Shown piece after piece: positions 8,336 to 37,128 of a DNA stretch of 64,000 nucleotides (position 1 is the stretch's first letter; the number at the start of each line of letters is the position of its first letter). The position numbers and the translations under genes are program-made. The DNA lies in NCBI GenBank assembly GCA_046563655.1, contig CM102283.1:1488001-1552000 (forward strand), written 5' to 3'. This DNA is from Yuukianura sp. NJ FZ-2021 (Eukaryota). A model generated the notes under the pieces. It ran no database searches. It saw nothing but the letters and a program-made list of their open reading frames with translations, and was not told the DNA's origin.

Positions 8336-10763
8336 CTACTTCGAGATAAACGATGGTCAACATTGGCAGCATATATTTTTAACTTTAAAAAGAACGCAAA
8401 CAAGATTTTTCGTAGTTTTCCAAATTTTGGTAGTTAAAAAATAATTTAAAAGTTGGTTGACAATAAATAACTTCTGAAATGGGGCATCCCAAGTACAATG
8501 GATGCTCCAAATCCTAAAGGAAACTTTGGTAATACTTTCAGAATGCAAAACTATCCAAAGATTTATTAAATTAAAACTTTAGTTCTAGTTAAAAAGAATA
8601 AAAATCAAAAATCCCCTTCACAGGTTTGTCTGAAACCTAAAAGATTGCAATTAGAATGAAAATGATTTCAAAATGACGAAAAGAAAAAGGTTTCACGAAA
8701 ATTTTCTCTGCGCTTTCAACTTTCACTTTCAACTTTTTTCAAAAAAAATTCTCATGAAATATTTTTGCGGCTCAGACTGCTCGTTACGTCCAATTAATTT
8801 GGATTCTGATAGAGTTACTTTCACCGCAGTTTTTTTTTTCGCAGACTGAAATGAAAGTCGGAATTGCTTTTGATCACGAAAAAAGTGGCAGAAAACGACT
8901 TCCCAAAAAACGGTTAGTTATCATTAGTGTGCCGTTTGGTGGTTTTGGATTCAATCACTTTCACTTTCCTCTTCTGGTAGTTCAATAAAAAAGGTTGGGC
9001 GGTAATTTGAAACGTTCCTCTGATTCTGTGAATTAGAGTGCCAAAAAAAAAATGTTCGGATTCTGTGGATTAGTCTGCTTCGTCCGCAGTATGTGATGAA
9101 GCTGCTGTAGCGATAAAACGAAGCTTTTTCTTTTCCTCTGACCCGGTTTTTTTTCTTTTCGATTTGAGCTCCATCATAATTCATCAGTCTCACCTCATCT
9201 ATCAAACTTTCTCCACTTTTTTTTGCGGAAAAAACTTCAACATTAGGGAGAAAGTTATTTCAAAACATCCGCCACAAGGAACTTCCTGTTTCACTACGTT
9301 CCAGTTTAGGTTAACCTTACGGTTAGGCTGGAGTCGATTAAGGTTAGGGTAGACTTTGAACCTAATTTAGGTTAGGATATACTCGTCAGAGTCTATTTAC
9401 TAGGTGAGCTCATGCACCTAAACAACTATTTTCTTTTCTTTTCTTTAAATTTCATGGAAAAGCAAAACACGGAGGTCTTGGAAAATCACGTACGAAAGAA
9501 AGCGGGAGAAAGTTGGAGTAAATTGAAACCGGAACAGGCGTCCTTGGGGAGGAGCAAATAACAATTGTATACCCTAACCCATACTTTAGTAATAAACAAA
9601 CAACCTACGCAGAAACAACAGTTGGCTGAATGGCCTTTACACTTTACAATTTCACAAACGTTAAATTGCCAAATTCACACAAATAGCCACGTGTAAAAGT
9701 AACCACAACTTAAGGTTTTGTGGACATTCAGACATCGCTTCAAAATTTTTGAAAAATGTCAAATTTGAAACAACTTTCCTCGTGCAGAGTGGCTTGAATA
9801 TTATTAAAAATTGACTTTTTAGAATTTTGGCTAGAATTTTTATATAGCCGTTATGACAGGAGTTGAAGGTTTTTGAAAATGAAAAAACTAGGAAATTTTA
9901 ATTTTGTGGAACAAAAGAGTCGGAACATGACTGCGGCTTGTTCTACGCAGGAATTAATTGAATTTGGGGAATAAATTAAGCTTTTTCCTTCTGTAAGCGT
10001 CAACTTAACAGGCTGCGTTCCAGGAATACAAAATAGTTTTGACGACAATTCTGTTTTGGAATATTAACCCACCATTCTCCATGCTCTTGAAATGGTAATT
10101 GAAAAAAATGAAAATTTTTTGAATTTCAACATACGTGTACAAATGAAGTAATTATCTTCAAAAGCGGAATACTTAAAAACTTTATGTCAAGGTTATTAGA
10201 ATAAAAATTGAAATAAAATGGCGGCACGCTTTAATTAACTAAAGAAATATCTTAAATATCTTCTGTGTATAAAGTACGAAGCGGGAAATATTTTAAGGAC
10301 AATTTTGAAGTTGAAATTAATTAGCTGAGTTAGTAGAAATTAATTATAAGTTGAGAATAGGCTTAGGGGCGGACACCCCAAGTGGTGAAAGTAAGTTAGG
10401 ATTTATGTTCGTACTTTCTTGTTCTGAAGCCACTGCAGCGATGCTCAGCATGCGGGCATATTTGTATGTTGTAGTTTATGTGTTTCGGACAACCCAGGGT
10501 ACAAAGGCGCGGCAAAATTTGAACAGACATGGCACACTCATAAATTTTCCGCTTTGTTTTCCTTACTGAATTGTTCATGTCTTTTGTCAAACAAAGTCAG
10601 GCGGAAGAGGTTCTAACTTATTATTGCGCAAGGAATACGACTAAAGAATTATATCTCACTATCTGAATATGCACCAGACATTGGCGACATATTGACAGGT
10701 TTGAGTTTAGTAAAATACTACAACTAAAGTCAATTTAGCAATATGTGTTTGTTTTTTGATTTT

Positions 10764-11487
10764 TTACATTAAAAATTTTGGTTCCTCTTTGTTCCTAGCC
10801 GCACGAACGTTTTCCTCCCACTGTTTCTGGCAACTCCTTTGCCTAAATATGGAAGACAAGTCGTTTACTGCATTGGACAAAGCTGATCCAAAAATTGGCA
10901 GTAAACTTGGCCCCACCAAATTGGTCCCCACCTTACGAGCCGTTTTATCTTGATCACTAAACGCCACGCCGAATTTGAGAAATGTAACGAAATGTTCGCA
11001 GTTGAAGTCACTCAAGTTGTAGTAAAGTTTGGACCGTGGATTGTTCAATAACAAATTAACCGTGTCACTGATCTCCGTAAAAGAATTGGGATTTGAATTG
11101 GACTTGTTATTGATTCTGGTTCTCGAGTTTCCTACATAAAGACATAGTAAGCAATTTAATTTCGGAATAGTATTATTTTTTACATTATTTTTAGTATTAT
11201 ATTTAGATTTTTTTACAATGTAACAACTACTAACCTGCAACTTCCTTCAAATTATCAATTGTAATTTTTCCAGGTACGAATTTGAGGGCATTGTTTTTGT
11301 CAAATTCACCAGACTCTGGATTAAAATGAACAATGGTGTCTTGGCTCATACTAAGAGCCCAGTGGCGATAACCGGATCGTTCAAATTCAATTAAGTCGCC
11401 TTGTATTGGGGATATTTTGTCCACGCTGGACCAATCCGGAGTTTTCAGTTCGTTAATGATTTCGGGTAACAGATTTGTAGGAAGCAT
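10764..11487 (-). CDS. LRAT/HRASLS (PLAAT) family NlpC/P60 acyltransferase/phospholipase, 2 exons
   Basis: GDLIEFER.GYRHWAL...VHF in exon 1 (11487-11235) and YNL..FNCEHFV catalytic motif in exon 2 (11131-10764). GT-AG intron 11132-11234 joins the frames. Confidence 0.85.
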
Positions 11488-12070
11488 GATTGTAAGTGTT
11501 CTGTCTTAGAATATCTGCAAGACACTGACTTGCTAGTTGCTATGCCTCACTTCACAGTGTACGCAATGGGTTGATACGGGTGACCTTGGAATCATGACGC
11601 TGCAAACAGAATTCGTCTGAAGCCACTTCACATCCCTCATGATATAAGTGCAGAGAAGTTAAGTTCGCGAGTTTATTTTAGCGACAGTCAGATGACCTTG
11701 AATCTCTAAGGAAAGTCAAAACAGTGAGTTCCAACTTAACCAAAGTTGAGACGGTGCAGAAAGTAAATTCTGGTTGGTTTCACGTTCTCGTTTCTGAACG
11801 TGTTGCAACTTTTAATTAATCTCAGTTAATTAATTGTGCTCCTATTAGGTTTAAAAATTTTCCGTAAACTAACTATAGTGAGTCTCCAGATCATGTCAAA
11901 AGTCCTGTAAATTAACATAGTTTAATTCTGTGCAGCAGATACTGCAGTTACAATTATTGAGAGACGCAAACCAACACTTTACCTTGGTTTGTTGCTTGAA
12001 AAATATTTCAACTGGAATGTTCAAAAATTGCAGCGAAAAGTCCGTGCACGGTATTAAGATTATCGAAGCA

Positions 12071-12408
12071 GACCAATTCCTAAACACAGTCAATTCGTAA
12101 GCACGGTCAATTCGTAAGCAAATCTTTCCGCATGGTTATGTTTCCGTTCTGTAAGGTTAGGTTTTTAAGCTTTTAATTGAATCTAGATTATACTGTGTTA
12201 GGTTAGGCTAGGTTAGGCTTTTTAGGATATTTTTTCTTCAAAATTTTGAAATAGAAATAGGTTTTGCGAGGCTTACGAAAGCACTGCTTACGAATTGGGC
12301 TGCTTACGAATTGACCATGCTTATGAATTGACCGTGCTTACGAATTGTCGGCTTACGAAATTGAGCTTACGAATTGACTGTTTACGAATTTGAGCTTAGG
12401 AATTGACC
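12071..12408. repeat. Foldback/MITE-like element whose inverted arms are built of GCTTACGAATTGAC subrepeats
   Basis: GTCAATTCGTAAGC copies at about 12089-12119 face about 9 reverse-complement-like copies at about 12270-12408. The centre has GGTTAGG motifs. Confidence 0.6.
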
Positions 12409-12665
12409 TGGAACCAAGATTATATCGTTTTTTTTTAAGCAAGATTAGTAAATTTTAAAATAAACCAATAGAATCACTATTTTTCGAATCTGAGTTTCTA
12501 CCAATACTGAAACACTAGACTCAGTACAAGATTACTGTAAAGTTTTAATCCTAACACTGTTGTACCCATGGTGTATGTTGTTTTTTAATTTTTCTGTGCA
12601 TATTATATCCAAGGAAGTAGGGTAGTTTCTTGATACGTTCTTTTTACCCTTTAACTTGGTTTCAA

Positions 12666-15600
12666 TTACAGTAACTTCAGCTGTAAATTTGCCTTTTGGA
12701 TGTGTGTAATGATACTCTTGGGAAGAAGGCCAGAGTTGATAAATGTTGATGTTCCAAAGTAAAGTTCAAGTTGAGGTACAAAGGTATTGTACAGCCACAT
12801 AAAATAGTTTTTGTCTTCATTTGCAACAATTCCATCAACGTCCCAATATTTAGGTGGCATTACGGGTGATTGTGGTGAAGGTCGGTCCAAAAGTGTCGTG
12901 TAGCGATCACGCCAATGTGGAAGATTCGTTTCACGTCCAGCAATATATTCTTCCCAGGTCGGTGGTTGCATTGTGACAAACTGAATACCTGTACTTCCAT
13001 ATGATTTTTGCACTTTTTGTACTTGAATTGTGTGGCCTCCGATAGACTGGATTGATTCATCATGATCATCTTTAAAAGATTTGATCAAATCATCCCATTT
13101 CAGTTTGTCCATCAGTGGCATTTTTGTGAACAGATCAGTATCGTTTATCTGTTCATAAGTTCTGCGGAGTGCCAAAACATCAATGAATGGATCTTTTAGG
13201 CCAAGTCCACCCATTTCAAGCGGCCAGTAAATCCATGCGTCGAGTAAATCCGCTTCTTTTAAGGCTGCAAATTTACTTGTCAAAGCTCGTATAGGAGAAG
13301 TTTCCAGTGATCCAAATACTCCAGCATAAATTGAACGAAGTGAAGAAACAATTTGATCCAAATGGGCACGTCCAAAAATAAGAGCAGCTTTACCAAAATT
13401 ACGTACAAAAAATGTCATGTACTTGTTAAATATTTGAATCCATTCGAGCGTACATTCCGCCTTGGCAAGGAGACTTTTCATTTCGGCAAGAAATTTTTCA
13501 GTCGAGTTTTGATCAATTCGAAGCGTTCCTGTTGAATCTAGTACCAAATATCCCCAATGAATATTTCGTTGTGGTAAAGGAGATGGGCCTGGTACACTTG
13601 CATGTTGTTTTGGTTTTTTCGTTTTTTTTCCATGTTTCTTTGGAATTTCTGGAACTTCTGACCAAATTTTGACTGATCCACTTCGTTTCACATTGACCTT
13701 CAGCCCAACCATACTTCCAAATTCATTAAGTGTTTCCCATGTTTTGGTAACATGCGATTCCTCTTTACTCCAAAACCAAAATTCATCTGAAATTCGGTAA
13801 ATTTTCAACCCTTCACACTTTCGATTCACGATGGATTCAAGTACAAATAGCAAAGTTTCTCCAAAAAGTTTTGAAAGCGCGTGTGATGTAGGAACTCCGC
13901 GTAAGACTTCTTGCCCTGTTTCAGAATTTGTAAATTTCAAACTATGATGTAGGAAATTTTTGAAGAAATCAAGCCACTGAGTTGACACACCAAATTTTTC
14001 CATTGCTATAAGAATAGCTTCGTGTGTTAGTGAGTGACCGAATGTTTCCAATTGTGTTTGAACAAGAATCAAAGGTTTTTCTGGATACAATACTTGGTGA
14101 AGTCGAATTTCTGTGCTCAAAACATGCAAAAATGACTGCTTTGGGTCAATGTCTGGTTTTGGGCGAGGTGGAGCAGGTCGATAAGCTTTTGCTTTAAATG
14201 ATTTTGTTCGAAACTGTAAATTTTCTGTTTCATCAAAAGAAGCTGACGCCATCATTTGATAAGTTTGTCCAAAATCGTTAGTTTCTTCAGATTCAATTTG
14301 AACGAATTCGTCTGTTATTGGATTTTCTTGAGATTGCAGAGAATCAGGAAGAGCTGTTAGGAACATACTTCTGTGGTAACGATTTCGTTCGGATTCGATA
14401 GACGATTGGTTGTACGGTACACGAGTCCACATTTTAGAAGAATAAATTCGGAGAAAACGAGATTTAAAAAATGCGGCCCAACTTACTCCGATATACTGCA
14501 GAAAAAGAGCAGATAAGATATCTTCGTTTAAATATGCTCTGTATTCCCCGGCTAGCCCACGCCGCACATCAGCTGGATGAAATGTTGTTGCGTTTGGCCA
14601 ATCCCAACGATCCAAATTTATCATCCGACTTGTCAGAAGTGATGCAACTTCGGTTACCGTTTCATCATTTTGAGATAGTTCCCGAAGTGAAGATTTTTTA
14701 GTCTCAGGAAATAAATCTTCAGATAGTAGGCCTGCGATCAAATCAAGGTTCGTAAAGAAAAAAAAAACTTTTTCTACCTCAGACTGTCCAATAACTGGGG
14801 TTTTTCAGTTTTTTGCCAAAATTTTCAATAATGAAACCGGCTGAACTTCCGTTTCTATCACAATTTTTAACTTTTTTTAAACTTTTTTTTTACTCCTATG
14901 TGATTTGAAGTGTTCAAAGTTTGGGGAAAAAAATTGTTAAAATTTTTTTTGAAGCACGATTTTTGAAAACCCTGAGTTACTGGACAACCCATTGTAGGAA
15001 ATACACTTTGATTGTCAAGGAACCTTGCCTGTGATGCAGAGCTGGACATCATAGCTTGAGATACTATGGGATTCGACCTTTAAAAATTCCGATGATTCTT
15101 TGCGTATAGTTTTAACCAAGTTATCCACGTCAGTACTTTCACCAGCCGCAAAAAATTCTTTATCCAAGAATTTTTTAAATTCCGTAGGATTAAATTCATT
15201 TGAAGTCGGAGCAGTAAAAATAAGCTTTGAAATTTTAGCAATTGCTTCTTTTTTGGCTTTTGTTGTATCTTCCAATTCTGCATTACTGCGATCCAATTCT
15301 TCTTTTTCTTTTCTTCTTTCATCAACTTCAAGCCATTCTCCAATCATCGACGCAAAGTAAAATGAATATTGACATTTGCGTAGAGCGCGTTGAATTTCGA
15401 GTCGTATTTTAGTTATCCAGACAGTGAGAACATCAGATGTGAGAGAAGGATCATCATTTGAAAATTCAAGGACATCTTTTAAATTTTCAATTAAATTGGC
15501 ATCAATCGTTTCCTTGACGGGTGATGTTTTGACCGCATGGTAAAGACTTTCCAAGGTTTCACGCGCATGTTCAGAAGATGTGCCATTTGATTGCTTAAGA

Positions 15601-15709
15601 ACATCCCTGAAGTGAGCTGTCATCAAATCCTTCTGAATCCGAAGTTGCTCAAGCTTCTCCTCAGTAACTTGTTGAAGAATTGTTTTAAACGAAGCGCCAA
15701 TGCCCAGCT
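12666..15709 (-). CDS. rvt: rvt-type cellular reverse transcriptase-like protein with degenerate catalytic motifs; at least 2 exons, start codon unresolved
   Basis: Exon about 15709-15029 encodes the N-terminal coiled coil (ILQQVTEEKLEQLR). Exon 14731-12666 has RRGLAGEYRAYLNEDILSALFLQYIG, FGHSLTH, RGVPTSHALSKLFGETLLF, YRISDEFWFW, WGYLVLD and YWPLEMGGLGLKDPF, matching rvt-family signature blocks as I recall them. No adjacent gag, endonuclease or LTR. Confidence 0.8.
14744..15027. mobile_element. Non-autonomous hAT-like MITE with CAAGGTTC...GAACCTTG termini, occupying the rvt intron
   Basis: 8-bp TIR, inner TGTCCAATAAC/GTTACTGGACA inverted repeat, near-identical 8-bp flanks CCTGCGAT/CCTGTGAT, and a related copy at 48396-48619. 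Confidence 0.65.
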
Positions 15710-15750
15710 CTATAAGGAAAACAAGTTGAGATGAGCCTAAATTTCCTCTG

Positions 15751-15828
15751 TAGTTAGTTACTTGAAGTAACTAACTATGTATGGAAGACAACATGAAGTA
15801 ACTTACTTCATGTTGTCTTCCATACATA
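15751..15828. repeat. Two abutting perfect palindromes (13-bp and 26-bp arms)
   Basis: TAGTTAGTTACTT-g-AAGTAACTAACTA (15751-15777) and TATGTATGGAAGACAACATGAAGTAA-c-TTACTTCATGTTGTCTTCCATACATA (15776-15828). Confidence 0.9.
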
Positions 15829-18560
15829 ACCTTAGCAATGTTTATAACAGTGTACGTGTAGCCCGACGTTTCTGCTACAAAGATATGTGATAGAAAAAAT
15901 GTCTCACCTAGGAGCGACAGGCAGGAAAAATAAGGCAAAAATGACGAAATTTAGTCATTTTTAGAATGCGCGGACTTCCCTTTTAGATTCAGTTGTGTAG
16001 TCGCTGAAGTACACCAGCAACTGACATTAATTTGTAAGAATTTACCAACTTTAATGCGCTAGGCGTATACTTCAAACATTTAATCGATTATTGTTCAAAG
16101 CGGTATGCAAATGTCTTCCTTGCGATTCTACAGTGTCCTATTGTTTGCAGACCTTGATTTAGATGTAAATATTTTACTGTCTAAATCCTTGCCCTTGACG
16201 TGCTTGGTAATTACCACGCCAAAGGTTTCAGAAAACCTTGAATTTAAAAAATTACTTCCACCCTTGCTGGAATTTAAATTTAAAAAACACGCTAGTTGAA
16301 TTATCTTATTTTAAAAAAATTAGTTTAACAAAGTAATTAGTTTAAATATAAAAGAATTAATAAAATGTTCAAAACGTTTTATTGTATTCCAAGTAAAGCG
16401 TTAACACTAACAGCCTGATTCAATACAAACCGAAACGAAATTAATTTTGTTTGTTGCTGGAATACGAAAAATATTCCAACCCGAATAAACGTAAATGTAA
16501 AAATATTTTCACATGTTAAATGTAACTGCACCAATTAAGTGCAGCTACTATTATGAAGGGAATCGCTTACTTACAACTTCGGCCATACATAACCCCCGTC
16601 TGCGATTGGGCGTGGCGTATGATACAGTGCAAGGGACCTAAAAACGTTACGGACGGACGGACGGACAAAGTCGTGTCAATAGTCTTCTTCAGCATGTAGG
16701 AACTCGTAATTTACGAGTCGTAAACTTGCGTTTCCCTAAAGTAAAAGGCTAACGAGGCAATCCGTGGCGCCGCTTAGCGGCGGCGTTCGCACTTACAGTA
16801 TGGCAATGGCAACTCTTGTATCCGATGTACCCACGGAGTGTAACCATTGCTCTCTGTATTTTTCATGTCAACTGATGGTATATTCGTAGTGGGTGGTTAC
16901 AAACACATGATAATGCAGATTTTTTAATTTTGTAACCGTAGGATTGTATTGTAACGATTAAGTGTGGTCATGGAAAGTAGCTGGACTATCGGGTTACAAT
17001 AGATTGACGTTTAGTTCACTCCTTCACTCACGCAGAGTGTAACTGTACAAGTCAGCAAGGTTTTTTTTGTGAATGATGATCATAACAACAAATATTGACT
17101 AAAAAATTGCATCCTGTTTCGTTTTCCTTCATCTGGCGCTTCTACTAGTCAATCGTTCTTGACATTTTGACGTCTAATCGTCGTCCGTCCATCTGAACTA
17201 TCTGTAAGGTAAATACCTGTCTTGAACTGGATTAAAGGCGCCTGACTCGCTGACTCAGAAAGAAGGTGTTCCTCATTCGTCTATGAATCGAATGTGTCTG
17301 GAAGAGATTTTGACTTCCATTTTCCTTTATTTTCAGTTGCATTAGCGGAGGATATTGCATACCTGACGAACCATGAACCCACAACCGGCGAACGTCAAGG
17401 AACTGAAGGTTGGGAGATTCTACAAATGTCAAGTCGGACAAGTAACGAGAGCTGGACAGCTGTTCATGCTTCTACATACTTCGGCAACTGAGGACATTGT
17501 AAGTTTACACCTATGATATGTTTATCCAAGATAAACTTTATAAACGTAATGAACGTGTTCGGGTTATCCCGTGATGATGTTGTAATGAACTTTGCTCATC
17601 GTTTTCAACTCCCTAGGATATGGAAATTCGAACCTGGACTCGCTTCTACTTGAATGAACCGAATATGAGTCGGAAGTTCAACCTTGATTGTTCACTTCGG
17701 CGCATGGTTGTGGTTGTTATTCGAGCTTCCTCAACCGTCTACCGGGGGCTACTGGTTAGCTTAGACATTGAATCACGAAAGGCTGTTCTGGATTGTGTCG
17801 ATTTGGGTGAAATAAGACAAGTTTCAATTGATCACTTGTATGAAGCAACGCCCGAAGTTGTAGCAACCAAGTGGAAGGTAATCTACGTTATTATTTTTAA
17901 GTCTGTCAACTGATGTATAGCTTATTGGATATGTTAAGTCAAACTAGGCTGGCTACCTTAGAAAGATGTAAGATGTAACTAAACCATTTTCTATTTTCAG
18001 ACGGTTCCCTGTGTGCTGGATGGATTGGCAATGTTTTTAGGAACCCACTTCATGGAGAAAGGACTTCAGCACTGCAGCTTTATTCAAACTTCTAAACAAC
18101 TTCGAATGACAGTGAAAGGAAAACTGGACTCTCATTTCGTCATTGTTTTGGAGTGCTTCTCGAATCCAAAGTCAGTTAAGAACGTTAACACTATGATCAA
18201 CGAGTTCCTCCAAGGTCCTCTTTTGGAAGGACTTAAGAACAACGAGGTTAGTTTCCGTAGTCAATTCTCAGTTTTTAGCTGCTACTCATAGTACTAACTT
18301 AAGCTTCATAACTATTTAGTTGCCATCGTAAAGTGAACTTACTTGTGTGTTTGAATTTAGAACTCCAGCGTCATGGTTTCTGAAGTTCGCGGAGATGGAA
18401 TGATATATTACTCTCAAGTTGCTGGCGTTCAAGATGACACGGCCATTACACTTATGGAGTCGTTTCTCAGTCGAGTCAGTTATCGCGTAATGCGACGTCA
18501 ACTGCCAGCAGTAACCCCTGCAACAGTGGACCTAAATGAAGTGTACTTGGCTCCATATGA

Positions 18561-18809
18561 TGCGGCAGACCGGGGATTCCGCTGTTGCTGAACTGACCTC
18601 TGACCTCGTTGGAGTGATGCACTACTCAATAAATTGACCTCAACTACTTGCTGGACTTGGTGTCCAGTGGTAATCTGCTTAGGAGATGTTCTTTATTTAA
18701 CATCCAGAGAAAGACTGACAAGCATCTACCTAATCTACCTTACGTTAGATTGTGTGTTACACCTGTTGTCCAGTGGGGGTGGGTGTGGGTGGTGTACCGT
18801 CCCGCTACA
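18561..18809 (-). repeat. 3' LTR
   Basis: Identical by inspection to 27526-27774; TG...CA termini; AATAAA on the element strand. Confidence 0.97.
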
Positions 18810-20900
18810 CATTCCACCCGCAAGAAGGGGCCTCCCGGGGGGTGGGGTGGGGGTCTTCTCCTGGAGTGGGGGGAGGGGTCCTTGGATTGGTCCTCGGTCA
18901 TCCTTCCGCTGCCTGGGAGTGGTGACGTGTCTGCACTGCTGGCGCTTGTATGGATGATGATGTGGTGCTTGAGTGGTATTGTGGTGCTTGTTATCTGGTT
19001 TTTCTTTGTCGTTTTTGTGACGTTTTTGCCGATACTCTTTGACTTTGTTGGCAATCTTTTGTTTTTTCCAATTGATGAAGTATGGATCGGTCGCCATAAT
19101 TTTGATTTTTCTTTCTTCGCATTCTTTGCGAAATTGAGTGTCCTTTCTGTCGTGAAATGGACAATTTGACTTTTGGTGACCTTTCAACCAACATCCGAAG
19201 CAAACGTTGGTTGGTTGATTTGGGTTTTGAACGATTTCTTGTAAATCGTTTTGGATGGTGACGAGAATATTTTCTCGCTGAACCGGAATTTCTGGGATTT
19301 TTGTCGGAACTGTAATTTCTACAGTTCTTTCTGAATTTGATGTGATCTCTGGAACTGGTTCTGGACCGGTTGAAGTTTCAGCATCAATTTGAATGTTGTT
19401 TGTAGAATTTGGAGTAATTGAAATTGGTTCATCAACTTCCATTGGTTGAATTTGTTGAGTCAAATTTGTTTCTGTGGTGGATGGAGCATTTTGTTGAAGT
19501 AAATCATTCGAAAATGATTCGATGTCTCCGTCCGCTGTGATTTCAATTTCTGGATTTTCTGGACGCGTAGTTATTGTCACGTTTCCGTTGCAGAATTCAA
19601 CGAGTGAATCAGTTGATTCTTCCGAGGAATGTCTCGTTCGATTCGATTGGCGGTTAGGAACGACGACTACAACGGATTTGATTTTTGGTGACGGAGGTTC
19701 TGGTATTTCCCATGGATTTGAATTTGCGTCATTTTGTCTTTTTTGTTGTTCTGTGAAGATTTGTAGGGTCTTCTGTGACATCCGCCTGGCAAATACACTA
19801 CCATCCAAGGATTTTGGTGGTAATTCAATTAGATCTTCTTTGGTTTTGTAATTGTTTGGAGCTTCGACCATCGCTATGAGTTTCTCTTTTGGACAGACAC
19901 ACTGTCCAGGAAGATCATGAAATCTTGCGATGTCTTCTCTCAGTATGAAAATTTCTTTGAGGATGTGATTTTGAATTCCATCCAAGTTGGCGGTTTTTGC
20001 GATGTCATCGAGTTTTTGAAATTTTGGTTGACCAATATTTGGAGTATGTTTTGGGTAACGAAAAGTGACTGATGTCCATTCATTTTCATATAACTTGAAA
20101 CATTTTCCTCCATGATCCATCTTGATTTTGTTCCATGCTCGGATGAGCAAATGGGAGTCAGATCTTGCGTATTGGATCAAATCTGCATGGAGTGGTCTGT
20201 TTCGAAAGTCAGCGGCTCTTAGATCTTTGTTGGTTGGTTCAACATTTGGAATGAGAGTGGAAATTACTTTCCAGTAATTTTCTTGTCGTTGACGTTCTGG
20301 TTCGTCTGGAGGTTGTGGGAACTTGTAATAGGCTCGCTGTAGGTCAATGATTCCGACGGGGAATATTTTGTAAAACAAGTTCAGTTTTTTGACATCTTCT
20401 TTAGGGTCGAATCCGATTTTGATAATGTTAGGATTTTCAAAGATTGTTTTCAGTTCTTGTATTTTTTCGGAAAATTGAAAAGGGCAGATCACGTAATCTT
20501 TTTCTTGTGTGGAGATTTGAATAAGTGTCGGGTAAGTATGACCAAAGTAAGCTCGATCTGTTCCGTCAGAAAATTCAATGTCGAATCCAATTTCTTCTTG
20601 AATTTTGAGGTCATCCAGCATCTTTTTGAATTCGGAATATTTTCCAGGGATGATAACTGGAGTCGTAGCTCTGTCATCCTTGATGCTTTGACCAGTTTTG
20701 TATGTGGACATTGATTCTGTTATGTGAAATTTGGTCATTTCGGCAAGTTTCGGATTTTGCTGTATGTCGTAGCCGTCCTTGTTTCTTTGGATACAGTAAT
20801 TTCGGAATCCTTGGAATTTCGGATTGTAGAATGGTCTGGTTTTGGCTTTTCCATATTTCTTTTCCATTTCCGCTTTCAGTTTTAGCCATGGAGTTGCCAT
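18735..20900 (-). CDS. Retrotransposon ORF3: Rrp6/EXOSC10/RNase D-like DEDDy 3'-5' exonuclease + HRDC + disordered linker + CCHC zinc knuckle (721 aa)
   Basis: ExoI IGFDIEF, LIQISTQEKDY, IFENPNIIKI, ExoII FDPKEDV, DFRNRPL, ExoIII YARSDSHLL. HRDC-like ILREDIARFHDLPGQCVCP. Knuckle CFGCWLKGHQKSNC. The stop lies inside the 3' LTR. Confidence 0.88.
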   Translation of the reverse strand: MATPWLKLKAEMEKKYGKAKTRPFYNPKFQGFRNYCIQRNKDGYDIQQNPKLAEMTKFHITESMSTYKTGQSIKDDRATTPVIIPGKYSEFKKMLDDLKIQEEIGFDIEFSDGTDRAYFGHTYPTLIQISTQEKDYVICPFQFSEKIQELKTIFENPNIIKIGFDPKEDVKKLNLFYKIFPVGIIDLQRAYYKFPQPPDEPERQRQENYWKVISTLIPNVEPTNKDLRAADFRNRPLHADLIQYARSDSHLLIRAWNKIKMDHGGKCFKLYENEWTSVTFRYPKHTPNIGQPKFQKLDDIAKTANLDGIQNHILKEIFILREDIARFHDLPGQCVCPKEKLIAMVEAPNNYKTKEDLIELPPKSLDGSVFARRMSQKTLQIFTEQQKRQNDANSNPWEIPEPPSPKIKSVVVVVPNRQSNRTRHSSEESTDSLVEFCNGNVTITTRPENPEIEITADGDIESFSNDLLQQNAPSTTETNLTQQIQPMEVDEPISITPNSTNNIQIDAETSTGPEPVPEITSNSERTVEITVPTKIPEIPVQRENILVTIQNDLQEIVQNPNQPTNVCFGCWLKGHQKSNCPFHDRKDTQFRKECEERKIKIMATDPYFINWKKQKIANKVKEYRQKRHKNDKEKPDNKHHNTTQAPHHHPYKRQQCRHVTTPRQRKDDRGPIQGPLPPLQEKTPTPPPGRPLLAGGMCSGTVHHPHPPPLDNRCNTQSNVR

Positions 20901-21005
20901 CTGAAATTGAGGAATTTAAAATTAATTAATCCTGGATTGTGATTTCTCACATTGATATGGTATTTGGAATTTAGAAATTTTGTGTTTTTGTTTCCGGCTT
21001 CGCGC

Positions 21006-24000
21006 TTAGCGGTGATAACCTGCGAGCGTGCGATAATTGACTCTTTGTTTTTGTCTAAGTCTTGGTAAGTTTTCAGATTCATCGTTCGACGGAACTGAAT
21101 CATTTTTCTTTTGATTAAATTTTTGTTTTATTTTTCGGACAAAATATTGTTTAATTTGGGAAACATGCCGTCTCCCTACATGAGAATTGTCATCAATTCT
21201 TACTATTTCGTAAGTAATTGGAGTGGCTTTACTGCCAATTTTGTATGGACCTTCCCATTTATGGGATAATTTTTGTGCAATCCCTTCATCCTTACTGGAT
21301 AGGATATGCGTTTTAATGAGGACGAAGTCTCCTTCATTAAATGTCACATCACGGTGACTTTTGTTATAATACATTCGGTTTTTCTCATGGGCTATTTCCA
21401 TGTTTGCTCTCACGTACTCAATTAATTCTTTAAGTTCATTTGGAACTTTTTGAGCGTGGTTTAAGTCAACCTGAGTTGGACTTTGTTGTAAATTTCTGTC
21501 AAATGGCAATGGAATTTGCCTTCCCAGATTCAATAATGCTGGTGTGACTTTTGTTGTTTCATTTACGACTGTGCGTAATGCTAGAGCGAATTTTTGAATG
21601 TTTTGGTCCCATTTGTGATGACTTTCTTCGATGTATGCTTGAATCATTGTTTTGATGCTTCTATTGGTTCTCTCAGATTGATTGGCTTGAGGATGGTACT
21701 CAGCAATCATTTTATGTTTGATTTTCCATTTTTCACATAAATCTGCGATTATGTTGGAAGTAAATTGAGGTCCATGGTCTGAGATTATTGTGTGTGGAGA
21801 TCCGAATCTGCAGAAGATTTGATCTTCCAGTATTTCTTCAGTTTTCTTTGCAGTTGCCGCTGTCATGGGAAAAAGTTCAACCCATTTTGACAGTTCGTCT
21901 AGAACGACGAGTAAATATTTGCTTTGTTTTCCGCCCGCACTTGTTGGAAATGGACCTTGATAATCAACATGTATTGTTCCGAATACTTCGGATGGCGGTT
22001 TTGCAAATCCTAATTCTCCATAGGGTTTCCTATTTGAGATTTTTACTTTTTGGCATTTGTCACAAGTTTTGACATATTCTGCAATTTCTCTGTTCATATT
22101 GTTCCAATAGCATCTTTGTTTGATTCTTTCTTGAGTTTTTGTTCTCCCGAAGTGTCCGGCTTCTGGGGAGTCATGGAATATTTCCATTATTTTTGTTTTC
22201 ATAGTTTCTGGAATTACTGGTACCATGGTTTTTTCTTGATTTTTGTTAGGATCCTTGTCATTTTTGGGTAATTTTGAGTTGACTGGCTGTGTCTGAGGTT
22301 CATGACTCCTCTCTTCAGTTGTCTTCTCTTGATTTTGATTTGGTTTTTGTGCCGTAATAACGGTCTTTGGATGGCTGCAATCTGGTTTGAAACAAATTGT
22401 TTCATGACAAATTTTTGATTTGACTTGAGTCAATTTTGGTGAAGTTGCAGTCCTTCCTTTGAATGGTTTGATTTTTCGGAACAAAACGTTTCTGTCGAAG
22501 ACATAATTACTCGTAATGCTTGGCCGAACATTCTTCGTAACTTTGAGTTCGTTTATGATTTTTTGAGTTTGTGGATCTTTTCGTTGTTCCGTTGAAATAT
22601 CTTGTAATGATGGAGTACAGTAGACAAGTAGAAATGTTGGTAATAAAATGTTGTCTCTGTCTTGGAGCATGTCTGGATCGTTTTGTGTTTCTGGAAGACT
22701 GGCTCTTGAGAGTGCGTCTGCAACTACGTTTTCGGATCCTTTTCTGAATCTGATGGTTGCGTTCCAGGATGTGATCTCGATTGCCCATTTTGTAAGTTTG
22801 GCTTTTTTGTTTTTCATGGAATTTAAGTAACTGACTGCCTTGTTGTCAGTTTCGATTATGAAGGGGTGTCCTTCAATAAATTCTCTGAATTTGTCGTATG
22901 CAAAGATTATGGCATAAAGCTCTTTCTCATGAATATGAGCGCTTCGTTCTGACTTTTTGAGTGATTTGCTTGCAAACATGATTGGTCTTTCTTTGCCGTC
23001 AATTTCTTGGACAAGAACTGCTCCGAGTCCATTTTCTGAGGCATCACATTGCATGATTATTGGTTTTGAGTAATCGATTGTTTTTAGAATGACATCTTCT
23101 GCCATTGCTCTTTTGATTTCTTGAAATGCATTTTCTTGTTCTTGACCCCATCGCCATTTTACGTTCTTTCTGAGAAGATGATGTAATGGTTCGGCTTTTG
23201 AACTAAAGTTTTTGATGAAGGTGGCGTACCATGCGCACATTCCATGGAATCGTAAAATGTCTTGTTTGCATTGTGGAGTTGGAAATTCCATTATGGCCTT
23301 GACTTTTGAAGGTTGTTTGGTAATTCCATCTTGGCCAACAACATGACCAATGTAATGGACTTCAGTTTGTGCCCAAACTGATTTGATTCTATTAATTGTT
23401 AATTTCGCTTCTTTGAGTCTTTCAAGTGCTTTTTCAAGGTCAATGTAATGTTGTTCCAAGGTTGGTGAGTAAATCAGGATGTCATCAACGAAAATTTTGA
23501 TGAAAACGTCAATGTAATCTTGGAAAACGATTCTCATCAATGAAGTAAATGTTTTTGGTGAATTTTTCAATCCCATCGGCATCACTAGGAATTCGTAATG
23601 GCCGTCTTGTGTGATAAATGCGGTTTTCTCAATGCTGTTCTCGTGCATTGGAATTTGCCAAAATCCTGAGTTCATGTCGAGGACAGTGTACCAGTAGTTT
23701 GGCGGGATTGTTCGCAGGATGGAGTTGCAATTGTCCATTGGAGCTGCGTTTTTCTTCATACTTGCGTTAAGTTTGATGTAATTGATGCAGAGCCTGTACT
23801 TGTCTGAGTTTTTCTTTTTCTCTAACACCACTGGTGCTGAGTAAGGGGATCTGGACTGTCTCACCATTCCTTTTTGAATTAATTGCTCGATTTCTTGGTT
23901 GAGAACGTTTCTTAAGTTTGGAGCATATTTGTAAGGTCGGAGTTGAATTGGTCCGCCTTCTGTTTCTATTTCATGTCTGGTAAGATCTGTTCTGCCATTC

Positions 24001-24566
24001 AGATTGTCGTCTCTGGCGACTTCTGGGAATTTTTGAATTATTTCTAGAATTCTAGCTTCTTTTTTGTCTAATGGAGTTTTTCCATTTGGTTGTTCGTAAG
24101 TAAGGCTGAACAGAATAGCATTCTGTCGATTTTTGAATGAGAATATTGTTGGAAGTTTGTCTTCTGGTTTTGACTTAAACCAAAACTTTTCTCCTGAGAC
24201 ATCGAGAATGATTTCATGTTTCTTCATGACGTCTTTGCCAATGATAAGCGGAAATGGAAGGGTTTCCATTACGTATGCATTGGTGATTATGAGTTTGTCC
24301 AGGATCTTGAATTGGAGTCGAACTGATCCAATTGGTTGAATTTTTTGATTGTTTGCAATAATTAAAGTGAGATTATTGCTAGAGTTGAAATTCTTTTGAA
24401 TTTTCTTGGCTACTCTTTTGTGGATTAGAGTATAATCGCTTCCAGTGTCGAAAATGGCTTCGATTTCTGGTGTTTTTGATAAGATCAATGATGTTGCACC
24501 TTGGGATTTTTGAAATTTGAGGATTGGGAGAAGATAAGATGGTGCTGGGAGCTTATCTTCCCTCAA
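21006..24566 (-). CDS. pol: Pol polyprotein (aspartic protease, RT, RNase H, integrase)
   Basis: Protease FDTGS; RT VLDMNSGFWQI, MPMGLKNSP, FVDD; RNase H CDAS, EKELYA, TDNKA; integrase HDSPEAGH..CDKC, HVDY, SDHG, SERTN. No in-frame stops. Confidence 0.97.
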   Translation of the reverse strand: MREDKLPAPSYLLPILKFQKSQGATSLILSKTPEIEAIFDTGSDYTLIHKRVAKKIQKNFNSSNNLTLIIANNQKIQPIGSVRLQFKILDKLIITNAYVMETLPFPLIIGKDVMKKHEIILDVSGEKFWFKSKPEDKLPTIFSFKNRQNAILFSLTYEQPNGKTPLDKKEARILEIIQKFPEVARDDNLNGRTDLTRHEIETEGGPIQLRPYKYAPNLRNVLNQEIEQLIQKGMVRQSRSPYSAPVVLEKKKNSDKYRLCINYIKLNASMKKNAAPMDNCNSILRTIPPNYWYTVLDMNSGFWQIPMHENSIEKTAFITQDGHYEFLVMPMGLKNSPKTFTSLMRIVFQDYIDVFIKIFVDDILIYSPTLEQHYIDLEKALERLKEAKLTINRIKSVWAQTEVHYIGHVVGQDGITKQPSKVKAIMEFPTPQCKQDILRFHGMCAWYATFIKNFSSKAEPLHHLLRKNVKWRWGQEQENAFQEIKRAMAEDVILKTIDYSKPIIMQCDASENGLGAVLVQEIDGKERPIMFASKSLKKSERSAHIHEKELYAIIFAYDKFREFIEGHPFIIETDNKAVSYLNSMKNKKAKLTKWAIEITSWNATIRFRKGSENVVADALSRASLPETQNDPDMLQDRDNILLPTFLLVYCTPSLQDISTEQRKDPQTQKIINELKVTKNVRPSITSNYVFDRNVLFRKIKPFKGRTATSPKLTQVKSKICHETICFKPDCSHPKTVITAQKPNQNQEKTTEERSHEPQTQPVNSKLPKNDKDPNKNQEKTMVPVIPETMKTKIMEIFHDSPEAGHFGRTKTQERIKQRCYWNNMNREIAEYVKTCDKCQKVKISNRKPYGELGFAKPPSEVFGTIHVDYQGPFPTSAGGKQSKYLLVVLDELSKWVELFPMTAATAKKTEEILEDQIFCRFGSPHTIISDHGPQFTSNIIADLCEKWKIKHKMIAEYHPQANQSERTNRSIKTMIQAYIEESHHKWDQNIQKFALALRTVVNETTKVTPALLNLGRQIPLPFDRNLQQSPTQVDLNHAQKVPNELKELIEYVRANMEIAHEKNRMYYNKSHRDVTFNEGDFVLIKTHILSSKDEGIAQKLSHKWEGPYKIGSKATPITYEIVRIDDNSHVGRRHVSQIKQYFVRKIKQKFNQKKNDSVPSNDESENLPRLRQKQRVNYRTLAGYHR

Positions 24567-26203
24567 CAGTTTAACTGTTGGTTTGAGCTTTGAGTTTGTT
24601 GATTTTGACTCATGTTGGAGTCGTAAGTGTCGTACTCTTCATAGTACTCTTCCTGAGTAACTAGAGCTGTGCCTTGTTTGTTGGGACATTGATTTGTCGA
24701 GTGTCCGCGGCCTCTGCATTTTCTGCATTGAATGTTGTCAGAATTGCTGGCTGTGGCTTGATTATTTGAATTGTTTTGATTTTCTGAGGTTCCACGATAA
24801 TTGCTGTGGTAATTTGGGTCGAAATTTTTTCCTCTGTAATTGGAACGACGTCCACGGTAATTTCCTCTTTCGCCTCGTGTTGATCCTCGGTTGCCCCGAT
24901 TGGATCGACCTCTGTCATTTCCTCTTTGGGAATTTTCATTTTGAGGATTTTCCGTTTCTTTTTGTTCTTGGGTTTCAGCATTTTCATTGCGAGTGTTGTA
25001 GTAAGTTCGACCTCTTCCTCTGTATCGTCCCTTGTAGCTACCTCTTCCACGGGAATTGGTTTTTCGGGAATTGGAATTTGAATTTGAATCGTCTACTTGG
25101 TCTTTGTTTGAATTATTTTGACCTTTTTGGAATTTTCGTTCTTCGACGTTGCTCACTGCTGGAGCGACAATTGGTGGTAGACGATCTTTGCTCTTGGTTG
25201 CTTTGTCTTGTGCTGTCAAGTTGTCATGGACTGTGCGACAGTCATCAAATAAGGCTTGTGGAGAGTCGTACTCCTTGGTTCCCAGCATGGTTCTGATTCT
25301 TGGATACAGTGAGTTTTGAACTCTTAAGAGTGACTGAGCAGTGGTTTCATTTGGGAAACACAATTTTGAGAGTCTGAGCATTTCGTAAATATGAACTTCT
25401 GTGGGTTCATGAAGCAATTGAATTTTGTTTGTAAGGTATTTGACTCTGTTTCTGTGTTCGACTGGATTGTCGAATCTTCTGAGAAATTCAATTTTGAATC
25501 CGTTCCAAGTGTCGGTTTCATTATGGATGTGTTCCCACCATGCATGTGTTTCTTGGGGTAAAATGGATTTTACCATGTACAGCCATTGTTGGGGTGGAAA
25601 GCCTTGACTTGTAAAATATCGTTCTGCGTCCTTGAGAAACGATTCTGCTGTTGATTTTTTTGGATTAAATTTCGGAGCTGGAATTTGTGAATTGACTGAA
25701 GTCAATCTCACTGTTTGAAGTGCCTCCGTCAGCGTTTCAAGTGTGACGAGTTGACTGGGTCCAGCAATAGACGTATTAGAGCGTCTGTCAATTTGATTGG
25801 TTGCTGGGGCTCCTCGAACTAATGACGGTTGTCTAGATTCGTCTTGTGCTTTTGTTGCTCGGGCTCTGGCTTCTTTTGCTTGGTCCGCAGCATTAATTAC
25901 AACATGGAACATTTGTGTTAATTGGGCCATTTGTTCGTCTGAAAAGACTTGACCTTGGATTGGGTTGCTGCTTGGTCCTGGATTTGGATTTGGACGTGCC
26001 GGATTTAGGTTGGGAGCTGGCAAACCGACATCAAATAAACGTTGAAGGTCTTCTTCGAATTCTGTTTCTTGTTGATCAATTTGCTGTTGATCTAATTGTT
26101 GTTGATTTTGGTCTGTCGCCATTCTTCTTTGTCTTCCGCTTCGAGTGGTATCGGCAATTTCTGGATCGAGCGGTAGCAGATTTCTAAGCTCACGTTTACT
26201 CAT
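24563..26203 (-). CDS. gag: Gag (capsid-like region, RG-rich linker, CCHC knuckle)
   Basis: 546-aa ORF upstream of pol with CRKCRGRGHSTNQC. Pol is in the -1 frame at G-TTA-AAC just before the gag stop. Confidence 0.9.
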   Translation of the reverse strand: MSKRELRNLLPLDPEIADTTRSGRQRRMATDQNQQQLDQQQIDQQETEFEEDLQRLFDVGLPAPNLNPARPNPNPGPSSNPIQGQVFSDEQMAQLTQMFHVVINAADQAKEARARATKAQDESRQPSLVRGAPATNQIDRRSNTSIAGPSQLVTLETLTEALQTVRLTSVNSQIPAPKFNPKKSTAESFLKDAERYFTSQGFPPQQWLYMVKSILPQETHAWWEHIHNETDTWNGFKIEFLRRFDNPVEHRNRVKYLTNKIQLLHEPTEVHIYEMLRLSKLCFPNETTAQSLLRVQNSLYPRIRTMLGTKEYDSPQALFDDCRTVHDNLTAQDKATKSKDRLPPIVAPAVSNVEERKFQKGQNNSNKDQVDDSNSNSNSRKTNSRGRGSYKGRYRGRGRTYYNTRNENAETQEQKETENPQNENSQRGNDRGRSNRGNRGSTRGERGNYRGRRSNYRGKNFDPNYHSNYRGTSENQNNSNNQATASNSDNIQCRKCRGRGHSTNQCPNKQGTALVTQEEYYEEYDTYDSNMSQNQQTQSSNQQLNC

Positions 26204-27525: not shown

Positions 27526-27774
27526 TGCGGCAGACCGGGGATTCCGCTGTTGCTGAACTGACCTCTGACCTCGTTGGAGTGATGCACTACTCAATAAATT
27601 GACCTCAACTACTTGCTGGACTTGGTGTCCAGTGGTAATCTGCTTAGGAGATGTTCTTTATTTAACATCCAGAGAAAGACTGACAAGCATCTACCTAATC
27701 TACCTTACGTTAGATTGTGTGTTACACCTGTTGTCCAGTGGGGGTGGGTGTGGGTGGTGTACCGTCCCGCTACA
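27526..27774 (-). repeat. 5' LTR
   Basis: Identical to 18561-18809. Confidence 0.97.
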
Positions 27775-29537
27775 ATGAGGACGGTGTACTTTACCGTGCA
27801 AAAATTCTTGAGAAGGACGAAAAACGCGTCGAGGTAGAATACATTGACTACGGGAACCGGGAAGTTCTTCCATACACGGCTGTGTTTCAGGCTTCACTTG
27901 TGGACGTTACAATGGCATCATTCCCACCATTGGTACGTGGAATCCCTTATTATTCAATTCTCATAGTCATAACTTTTTTCTTTAAAAAAGTGAACTTGTT
28001 TTGTTTCAGGCTAAAAAAGCGTATCTCCGCTGGATCCAGGAGTTCAATGACCTGGAGAAGGCCCAGGACATTCTTACTTCCAAAACATGGAAAGTTGAGG
28101 TACGCAAATCGTTCAGAAACGGTTGTCCAATGGTTTGTCTCTTTGATCCGGCTGACTCAAGCGTCGTCAACAAGAAGTTGATTCTGGACGGCTTTGCCAA
28201 AAAGTCAGTTACTTCAAACTGAACCACCAATTTTTGAAAACATTGAACCATGTAGCTGCACAAGTTTTTGTTTTTTTTTTTTCTCAGTTGTTTCTTTGTT
28301 TATCTTTTTCGTTGTTGATAGATTACTCACTTGTGCACTACAGGCTATTTTTCAACTTCTTACCCAATTTTAACAAATTGGTTGTAATGTTTACATAAAA
28401 CATATAATAAAATATGTATTTAAAACTACAATAATTGTGTGAAGTAATTACTTAAGTTTGATTTAGGAACTTCGTCCGATGAAGAAGTTTAGTACTTTCA
28501 CCGTTTCACCTCCAACATTGAATTATTTCTCGCCATTTTTTAGTGGAGTAGGGAATGTCATAGGAGAAAGTGGCGGGAAAGTTAATTTAATTTTGGCTAC
28601 TCACTTTCCCAACCTCGAACTCCTTTCTGTCCTAAACTTGTCTCTGTCACTCCCAAGTCCCTGCTGAACTAATCTAAAAGTTAAGAGTTCATCTTCCTCA
28701 TTACTTCAACTTAACTTTAGGTAGCATAACCTACGAAATTTTGAACAAACCTAACCCTTGAAGTTTAAAATTTCAACCTTACTGGCCTCAAATATAAGCT
28801 GAAGTTGCACAATTTACGTTAGGTTAACGTAACCGAAAGATTTCGTAGATTGAGTAGATTTCATAATGAATTTCTCATACCTAGTAGAAAAGGAAAGTTA
28901 GGCAATAATGTTGAAAATAGAAAATTGAATTTCTTTTGTTTCTACTTTCTCCTTCTGGGCCGCACAACCAATAAAACTTTGCCCAATAATCTCTTCATCC
29001 CTTGCCCTTGCACAACTTTTGCACAACTTTGAACTTATACTGCCACTGCTCCAAATTAAATCTCCGCAGGCACTTCTGCCATGAAAAGTCTAACTTTTTT
29101 ATTTCCTTCCTCCGAAGTATTTCAATTAAAATTTCAAATTTAAATTTGTTTTTGTTTTTTAACACTCCACTAACCCCTGCCCTCCTCACTGACTCTTGAG
29201 CATTGACATTTTTCTTAAATAGAGCAGAAAGAAAGGAAAAACTTAAAAAAGTTGTTCCTTTTCGAAACACAATAGCTGCCTATGATACCGGCCTGTTCAA
29301 CTTTTTAATTAAATTTTCCTCCGAAGTTTTTTTTTTCGAGAACAACGAAACTAACCTGATGTCTAGCAAAGAAGTTTAGTCCGGAAGACTGTTTCAAAAT
29401 TCCGATTTTTTTTAGGAATAATAATAATTCAAAACGTGTGGATGGTATTTACAATTAACTTTCTAACAACTTTACATAAATTGTTATTATTATTTTTTAC
29501 AATTATTATTGATCTCTGATATAGTGAACTATAGGGC

Positions 29538-36818: not shown

Positions 36819-37128
36819 TTTTTGTTCAATTGGAACAAAATTTTAAAGTTTTTGAATCTTTTAAGCAAAAAAAAAATGCAAACTACGCCGTTCAAAGTTT
36901 TTAGTTTCTTGATATCTGGAAAGGTCTAAAGAAATTGGCAACTTGATTTCCAAGAAATGTTATTTTTAGTATCTGACAGTTACTCAAAAGTCGTGATAAC
37001 CTTTGACCCCGCAGTTTCTTATGTGTGCAAAAACTTATAGTTGCTTTGCAAACTAAACTCACTGGAGCATAAAAAGATAAGCACATGGGCACTAAAATAT
37101 TCACAAGACAAGTGTGTCAGAGCATTTC

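Follow-up and report, generated by a model that had tools for sequence, protein, structure and literature searches.

The window analysed here, a stretch of 64,000 nucleotides from Yuukianura sp. NJ FZ-2021 (assembly GCA_046563655.1, contig CM102283.1, positions 1,488,001 to 1,552,000), carries on its minus strand a gene that is a member of the rvt (RVT/UG37) class of reverse transcriptases (RTs), in an animal genome. The list of open reading frames places two long frames there, 15015..15770 (251 amino acids, aa) and 12666..14804 (712 aa), which fuse when 15029 is taken as the last base of exon 1 and 14731 as the first of exon 2. From the acceptor at 15709 onward the joined product has 914 residues, with every codon from 15707 to 12669 open, whereas none of 2000 shuffles of the joined coding letters remained open. 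An initial annotation of this DNA had put the open frame at about 920 aa or more, and relatives of similar length (~850–980 residues) agree with it: the upstream frame aligns with the first 250 residues of these proteins, and the alignment runs without a gap over the exon joint in every relative that covers it. The joined protein shares 45–51% identity with the ~900-aa proteins of Bradysia, Pseudolycoriella and Folsomia, and ~35% with those of early-diverging fungi. The coordinates first proposed, 12666..15709, proved exact for the two main exons, beyond which there is probably an extra 5' mini-exon (15908-15958).

The class was assigned with the PADLOC profile RT_UG37, which matches the RT exon with an E-value of 1.1e-52 (177 bits) and exon 1 with 2.3e-7 (profile positions 7-191); the next RT class for the RT exon is RT_UG4, at 8e-6. 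The same profile recognizes the relatives (Bradysia 8e-71, Folsomia 1e-69, Umbelopsis 1e-68, P0083 1e-62, Truncatella 1e-58), and the window's own Ty3/gypsy pol, taken as a control, had no RT_UG37 match and hit only the generic RT model. According to passages of one review, UG37 corresponds to the rvt elements, which occur throughout the eukaryotes as well as in a few bacteria, lie outside retrotransposons and viruses and carry out protein-primed synthesis (PMC9226505); passages of another note that these genes sit on a very long branch in RT trees and have a big loop 2a separating motif 2 from motif 3 (PMC5718144). The match to both exons, together with a helical N-terminus, a loop before motif A and a long C-terminal part, upholds the description as an rvt-type RT gene. 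The features of the locus are collected in Table 1, in which L004 denotes the nearest relative, a metagenome locus, and MITE a miniature inverted-repeat transposable element.

Table 1. Features of the rvt gene and its 5' region, in window coordinates
Feature	Positions	Strand	Basis or remark
Exon, N-terminal domain, all-helical in the model	15029..15709	-	Open frame, relatives, model
Exon, RT-like core and C-terminal domain, 687 aa	12669..14731	-	Open frame, Pfam, model
Stop codon	12666-12668	-	
Putative GC-AG intron, 297 nt	14732..15028	-	Removal gives an ungapped alignment to relatives; splicing predicted from sequence
MITE, 284 bp, intron body, termini CAAGGTTC...GAACCTTG	14744..15027	-	Second copy and matching inverted ends
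Variable insert ("loop 2a") preceding motif A	14163..14327	-	Alignment and disorder in the model
Motif A site, CAA (Gln), Asp in the family	14052..14054	-	
Motif C, GAT GAA (Asp-Glu), Asp-Asp in fungal relatives	13782..13787	-	
Candidate 5' leader mini-exon, 51 nt, ATG at 15958, then GTGAGA	15908..15958	-	Homology to L004
Probable 5' intron, GT..AG	15710..15907	-	Acceptor region conserved with L004; predicted splicing
Perfect palindrome, arms of 26+26 nt with 1 nt between, 100% complementary	15776..15828	-	Within the probable 5' intron

Relatives, fold and active site

With the RT frame as query, a word-indexed search of 5.8 billion proteins gave 23 matches at E≤1e-3 among 8000 candidates scored. 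The best was a protein without a name (51% identity over 98% of the query), and the others included Bradysia coprophila LOC119078878 (50%), Pseudolycoriella hygida Bhyg_03898 (49%) and Folsomia candida LOC110852291 (46%), as well as the fungal proteins of Umbelopsis vinacea (35%) and Truncatella angustata (31%). Bradysia and Folsomia are hexapods, and Umbelopsis belongs to the Mucoromycota. Repeating the search with the alignment (22 proteins) brought nothing new. An exhaustive hidden Markov model search of 1.84 billion representatives returned 1659 at E≤1e-3, 1257 at 1e-10 and 734 at 1e-30; among 20 of these that were looked up, the named entries beyond the hexapod-like ones were Umbelopsis, Calcarisporiella, Apophysomyces, Sorochytrium, Basidiobolus and Sclerophora, all fungi, and a marine protist transcript. 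L004 is closer than any of these, with 63% identity over 602 aligned residues, and shares no synteny with the window. A pattern scan of prokaryote genomes matched 102 stretches, of which none was a relative.

Trees were built as quick searches without bootstraps from a family alignment of the window protein and 171 of 176 proteins (P0017, of 387 aa, and the four cluster mates P0173-P0176 were dropped), most rows of which lack an organism name. In a FastTree reconstruction of all 172 rows, 18 hexapod-like rows fall on one side of a branch with a support of 99, and in a quick IQ-TREE run of 41 chosen rows 17 hexapod-like rows group together (Shimodaira–Hasegawa-like approximate likelihood ratio test, 99). 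In the latter the other 16 rows form the sister group of the window protein, whose end branch (0.72) is the longest in the clade; moving outward, P0091 and P0083 come first, followed by a group with Umbelopsis, Apophysomyces, Sorochytrium and the protist. When L004 was included, in a tree of 23 rows, it and the window were sisters (100), placed weakly (90) beside Folsomia. The clade is nested among early fungi, its named neighbours being Umbelopsis, Apophysomyces, Sorochytrium, Basidiobolus and Calcarisporiella. The hexapod-like clade of rvt is present in public databases solely as "uncharacterized" or "hypothetical" hexapod proteins.

Structural models were made with AlphaFold2 for the 687-residue product of exon 2 (alignment of 105 rows) and for exon 1 (73 rows). 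The exon 2 model is confident, with a predicted local distance difference test score (pLDDT) of 86.1 and a predicted template modelling score of 0.87, pLDDT dropping below 50 only at residues 146-184 and the last three; exon 1, for which the initial annotation had named an N-terminal coiled coil, is modelled as all-helical (pLDDT 87.3), with helices at 3-40 and 91-164. The disordered segment 146-184 is the insert before motif A. As had been noted from the sequence, this insert is large: between anchors it spans 62 residues, the family median being 28 (range 12-132). Foldseek matched the exon 2 model to 86 PDB chains at E≤0.001, and among the matches listed all were RTs or telomerases (9-17% identity); for the N-terminal model it found no PDB match at that threshold. 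The highest VIA-align Z score, 19.4, was to the R2 RT (419 residues aligned, root-mean-square deviation 4.5), ahead of a group II intron RT (16.2), LINE-1 ORF2p (15.9), DRT9 (15.8) and Prp8 (12.9).

That R2 and LINE-1 RTs head the structural matches, and that a Ty3/gypsy element lies 5 kb away, might suggest that the frames belong to a long interspersed nuclear element (LINE) or another retroelement rather than to a cellular gene. The identity shared with the structural matches is 10-17%, however, which speaks for the common RT fold, and as far as the models go it is an RT fold and not a LINE origin that these matches show. RVT_1, the sole Pfam match of the RT frame, stays below threshold (E = 4.5e-4, 20.4 bits against a cut-off of 29.6, residues 217-373), and neither endonuclease, RNase H or integrase domains nor flanking repeats were found, whereas the close relatives are all of ~900 aa with the same build and RT_UG37 matches at 1e-52. 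The features by which a LINE or R2 retrotransposon would be known (RVT_1 above threshold, an endonuclease, many copies) are lacking here, contig depth over the gene being like that of its neighbours. The best database hits, which the initial annotation had named as a possible source of trouble should they be LINEs or other mobile RTs, are instead the "uncharacterized protein LOC..." entries of Bradysia and Folsomia and fungal hypothetical proteins. We consider a retroelement origin extremely improbable.

The active site sets the window protein apart within its own clade. Over the 172 rows of the alignment, the motif A position is Asp in 134, another residue in 35 and a gap in three; the first position of motif C is Asp in 159 (other 9, gap 4) and the second is Asp in 143 and Glu in 20 (other 4, gap 5), and 114 rows combine Asp with Asp-Asp. 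The window copy does not have this catalytically standard pattern. At motif C it follows its clade, since Asp-Asp occurs in none of the 16 hexapod-like rows that have the column; these are mostly Asp-Glu, with Glu-Glu in one row, Asn-Glu in two and Asp-Gln in one, and the two nearest outgroups of the clade have Asp-Asp. At motif A it stands alone: of the 17 clade rows in which the column is present 16 carry Asp, as does L004, and Gln is seen only in the window, where its codon (CAA, 14054-14052) is two base changes from any Asp codon. Another 34 of the 171 family representatives, seemingly one fungal subfamily, are without the motif A Asp and keep Asp-Asp in motif C, and the rvt family therefore tolerates loss of the canonical Asp; the acidic residue two places past motif A is kept in those 34 rows and likewise in the window.

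These residues bear on whether the product might be a fully active RVT enzyme that makes protein-primed, largely untemplated nucleotide polymers of the kind reported for RVT proteins already studied, with a Gln and Asp-Glu site that still binds metal. The acidic residue past motif A, kept as in the maintained 34-row fungal subfamily, the retained first Asp of motif C, the confident model and the constraint on the conserved parts seen in the listed variants (below) all fit such an enzyme. The motif A Asp is needed for catalysis in other RTs, however, and it is just this residue that the window has exchanged although most of the family, all other clade rows with the column and the nearest relative keep it. 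We hold a fully active enzyme to be unlikely.

The intron and the 5' end

Between the two exons, the initial annotation had called a spliceosomal intron, and a 297-nt GC..AG interval fits the sequence, its removal leaving the alignment gapless. Its putative donor reads G|GCAAGG, near the usual GC-AG donor consensus, and the acceptor ..CGCAG|G follows a T-rich tract. The body of this intron is a transposon. A second copy of the MITE lies at 48396-48619 of the window, among the exons of a laminin gene, with 83% identity over the ends. When contigs of four runs, three from one sample (organism A) and one from organism B, were aligned to positions 9500-19500, those that match the window up to 15027 and then diverge into other sequence numbered 64 (run X2), 96 (X3) and 42 (X5), and the MITE is therefore multi-copy in both organisms.

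A single intron base precedes the element and 12 bases follow it, so that the element opens with the C of the GC donor. All four related loci that span the site (L001, L002, L004 and L006) are without the MITE intron and read straight through, and L004 is genomic DNA, because its 5' intron is present. Since the relatives, including this genomic one, read through, the intron appears to have been gained through the insertion, in the window's lineage. The flanks ATCACAGG and ATCGCAGG, alike in 7 of 8 letters, could possibly be an 8-bp target duplication, a doubtful one in that the second flank lies 5 nt off the element end and four of the eight letters are expected at any splice junction. A GT donor at 15024|15023 with an acceptor within the MITE was considered and rejected: it is in frame, yet it would add ~19 residues absent from all relatives.

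The other departure from the relatives lies at the start. They open with Met-Ser-Ala-Ser-Phe, where the window reads Ile-Gly-Ala-Ser-Phe with an ATT at 15701-15699; a CTG stands at 15707-15705 and the earliest in-frame ATG at 15623-15621. L004 likewise has no Met at that place. At its positions 2127-2181 there is a 55-nt ATG mini-exon, predicted to encode a hydrophobic, signal-like peptide, then an intron (GTAAGT...TTACAG) with an in-frame join just ahead of the conserved N-terminus, and the window acceptor at 15710 is clearly homologous to that of L004. The ATT need not be a loss, because L004, which is also without Met there, uses an upstream exon. As assembled, the window's candidate mini-exon has a TAG at its end and is one base out of frame with exon 1. 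This frameshift may be an assembly error, because contigs of three runs, X1 (record 5), X2 (record 13) and X3 (record 18), have one additional letter at some point within 15776-16099; the choice is between a broken leader and an assembly short of one base.

A further mini-exon, ATGAAG|GTAAGT within the palindrome, was discarded, since an X1 contig runs unspliced beyond the acceptor (up to 15735) and L004 indicates another exon. The depth of the palindrome is not raised, so it is not a common repeat, and the short-read (X1) contigs break on both sides of it. The hydrophobic leader that L004 seems to encode, resembling a signal peptide, would be unexpected for an RT-like protein.

Genomic setting

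The window contains laminin N-terminal, EGF and IV-B domains, four C-type lectin exons, Tudor, LRAT, biotin ligase and ligand-gated channel domains and a Ty3/gypsy element, and the genes neighbouring rvt have short introns. The laminin, C-type lectin, Tudor and LRAT genes and the like mark the host as a metazoan and match the earlier statement that the gene stands among ordinary animal genes. A comparison of the flanks found no direct or inverted repeats (long terminal repeats or terminal inverted repeats, TIRs) bracketing the gene; one candidate pair, 11979-12018 and 16441-16486, was rejected as it extends over only ~40 nt at 82-86% identity and BLAST added nothing. Contig depth over the gene resembles that over the LRAT and Tudor-like genes (26-33 against 24-26 in X2; 200-212 against 100-221 in X3), which is compatible with a single copy, depth not being a copy number. 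Its coding GC of 37-38% equals that of the window (38%), and third-position GC, at 28-30%, is below the 36-54% of the neighbours.

Contamination by fungal DNA, or a chimeric join in the assembly, has to be considered here, given that the nearest named relatives outside the hexapod-like clade are fungi, and that the stretches between the gene and its neighbours are not spanned by any one short-read contig. The latter, caused by the flanking repeats, leaves a small doubt. The MITE shared by the rvt gene and the laminin-gene region of the same window argues against a contaminant, and dozens of contigs from three runs, including that of the second organism, end in this element. The organism-B contigs, moreover, cover the gene at ~95% identity, as they do its neighbours, and its GC is the window's. 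Contamination or a chimeric contig, either of which the initial annotation had listed as fatal to its claim, therefore appears very unlikely.

The flanking repeats are two high-depth sequences unrelated to each other: that of the 3' flank (12074-12410) is a foldback of inverted arrays of a 17-nt unit, and the other (16514-16847) is the element with the highest summed depth in the 9500-19500 stretch. Head to head with rvt lies a plus-strand gene (17335-18560) with three short GT..AG introns that are spliced in X1, and 9 kb beyond it a Tudor domain exon (27714-28181, plus strand). The Ty3/gypsy retroelement (21006-26203, minus strand) has a pol frame of 1210 aa (protease, RT, RNase H, integrase) and a gag-like frame of 546 aa bearing a zinc knuckle. 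Adjoining it, inside or beside the Tudor-like gene, is an uninterrupted 726-aa frame (18735-20915, minus strand) with a 3'-5' exonuclease domain (Pfam E = 1.5e-20; RRP6-like in the PDB, E = 8e-17), for which the word-indexed protein search gave no relatives at E≤1e-10. If the 17335-18560 gene includes the Tudor exon, both the gypsy element and the exonuclease frame occupy its intron. The AT skew is strong (-0.23 to -0.31) from 18 to 28 kb. Elsewhere on the minus strand are four tandem C-type lectin exons (33537-38882, E = 1e-12 to 1e-15), probably a small tandem gene family, and the laminin gene (48022-52027) with its N-terminal domain VI, laminin EGF repeats and domain IV type B. The biotin-ligase exon returned only bacterial clusters in an Atlas look-up, PDB sequence searches with two neighbouring genes gave no hint of the taxon, and an Rfam search of the window gave no match.

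Constraint, possible role and known counterparts

Variation among the contigs suggests that the protein is still under selection. Among the best-supported differences listed, 25 fall within the coding sequence. Inside the insert (residues 366-418 of the long frame) there are 14, of which three are synonymous and 11 change a residue, while outside it ten are synonymous and one is not; as random single changes would be synonymous in 22% of cases, ten of 11 corresponds to p = 2e-6. Because the listed variants outside the insert are mostly synonymous, the gene still looks constrained.

Evidence on transcription comes from run X1. One of its contigs skips the GT..AG intervals 17499-17616, 17876-17998 and 18245-18358 of the neighbouring plus-strand gene and another skips 11131-11233 in the LRAT gene; these joints were seen in none of the other runs, and X1 therefore behaves like complementary DNA (cDNA). 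It covers 12267-14132, 15028-15735 and 15776-16669 with a contig depth of 8-18, and its coverage is nil at 9500-10167 and 18852-19500.

The changes at the 5' end and the MITE could also be those of a young pseudogene, in which insertion, loss of the start and the motif A change befell a gene lately dead that has not yet gained stops. Such a history would account for the ATT in place of the conserved ATG, the leader exon one base out of frame, a MITE within coding sequence whose splice junction is unseen and which leads to a stop at 15015 if unspliced, and the longest end branch of the clade. The 914 open codons and the ten synonymous changes to one non-synonymous in the conserved parts are hard to reconcile with it, however, and L004 is also without Met there and has the upstream exon instead, the leader frameshift may lie in the assembly, and the donor is close to consensus with a strong T-rich tract. 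A pseudogene therefore seems to us quite unlikely.

Taken together, the results show a chromosomal rvt-class gene of an animal, free of mobile marks, and we think it probable, if by no means assured, that it is under constraint, with a MITE-made intron and a product that is an altered or weak polymerase or a binding multimer. Several observations count against this interpretation. The class was assigned by the RT_UG37 profile, and what is said of Neurospora and Herpetosiphon RVT derives from review passages and general background; the phylum, in turn, would be Arthropoda solely on the ground that the nearest named relatives are hexapods. The end branch of the window in the 23-row tree (0.46, against 0.21 for L004) also fits relaxed constraint, and beyond the best-supported rows used for the variant counts there are 568 further differences over the 10-kb stretch. 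X1 is recorded as "DNA?" and its depth over the gene is about one tenth of that over the neighbours (115-119). No Met stands at the conserved start, and in the present assembly the ATG of the candidate mini-exon falls out of frame; read unspliced, the frame ends at 15015. The X1 contig over exon 1 departs from the window at 15028 and continues for 22 further letters; as this point lies no more than a base away from the donor and from the MITE edge alike, and a spliced read should stop matching one base further on, the contig end is uninformative on splicing.

If the gene is indeed constrained and altered in this way, its history and workings might be as follows. One acquisition would have founded the hexapod-like clade (sciarid flies, a springtail and environmental sequences), whose nearest outside relatives are early-diverging fungi. 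Multimers and protein-primed polymerisation in vitro have been described for bacterial RVT only, in review passages (PMC9226505). By analogy with that protein, the helical N-terminal domain would form multimers, and the RT palm and C-terminal domain would bind nucleotides, priming on the protein itself. The active site would have drifted, first to Asp-Glu in motif C throughout the clade and then from Asp to Gln in motif A in the window's lineage. The protein would still be made and constrained, and its role would be that of a weak or altered polymerase, or of a multimer that binds nucleotides or nucleic acids, rather than that of a standard RT. Its sole internal intron would have arisen when a MITE landed in the coding sequence and splicing took up a GC donor formed at the insertion joint.

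A bolder scenario, which we put forward tentatively and regard as possible but doubtful, is that hexapod-like soil animals carry a clade acquired a single time, the donor being an early-diverging fungus or something like it, that this clade has long lived with Asp-Glu, and that the window's lineage then lost the motif A Asp and gained a leader exon and the MITE intron as an RT fold turned to a non-polymerase role. If so, loss of the motif A Asp would be convergent with that in the fungal subfamily, and the hydrophobic leader may send the protein to a new compartment.

Whatever the role, Asp with Asp-Asp in the outgroups, Asp with Asp-Glu in the clade and Gln with Asp-Glu in the window form a series that offers a natural test of whether polymerisation is what selection keeps in the rvt family, the function of which is still obscure, and the locus would give one clean instance of a transposon creating an intron within a gene of foreign origin. 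Three points go beyond the initial annotation: Asp-Glu throughout the clade, the missing motif A Asp of the window copy and the MITE-made intron. A search of titles and abstracts found no report of rvt in arthropods, although the primary rvt papers (2011 PNAS, 2018 Curr Genet) may mention it; the review passages on rvt leave arthropods unmentioned (PMC9226505, PMC5718144).

Compared with known rvt genes (bacterial group UG37), the window gene is alike in its profile match over the N-terminal domain and RT core, in its helical N-terminus, large loop ahead of motif A and long C-terminal part, and in a depth compatible with a single copy and no mobile-element marks. It is unlike them in the Asp-Glu of motif C, a trait of the whole hexapod-like clade, in the motif A Gln of its own and in the added 5' mini-exon that it and L004 seem to bear. 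The proteins of Bradysia (LOC119078878), Pseudolycoriella (Bhyg_03898) and Folsomia (LOC110852291) resemble it in length, domain order and the Asp-Glu of motif C, at 46-50% identity over 99% of the RT exon; they differ in the conserved Met-Ser-Ala-Ser-Phe start and the retained Asp of motif A, and the window copy branches with L004, apart from them. Prp8 and other RT-derived proteins without catalysis are likewise conserved cellular genes with an RT fold and a changed catalytic residue. They share the fold with the window protein but no kinship in sequence, and loss of activity in the window protein would be a presumption. As for transposon-born introns (introners), passages on them (PMC9860276, PMC12130899, PMC11282704, PMC13591195) include a case on a horizontally acquired plant gene. 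The rvt locus differs from introners in offering one case and no genome-wide burst, in its GC donor and in splicing that is predicted from the sequence; it is like them in that its intron is a multi-copy TIR element absent from relatives, and that excising this element with a few flanking bases restores the reading frame exactly.

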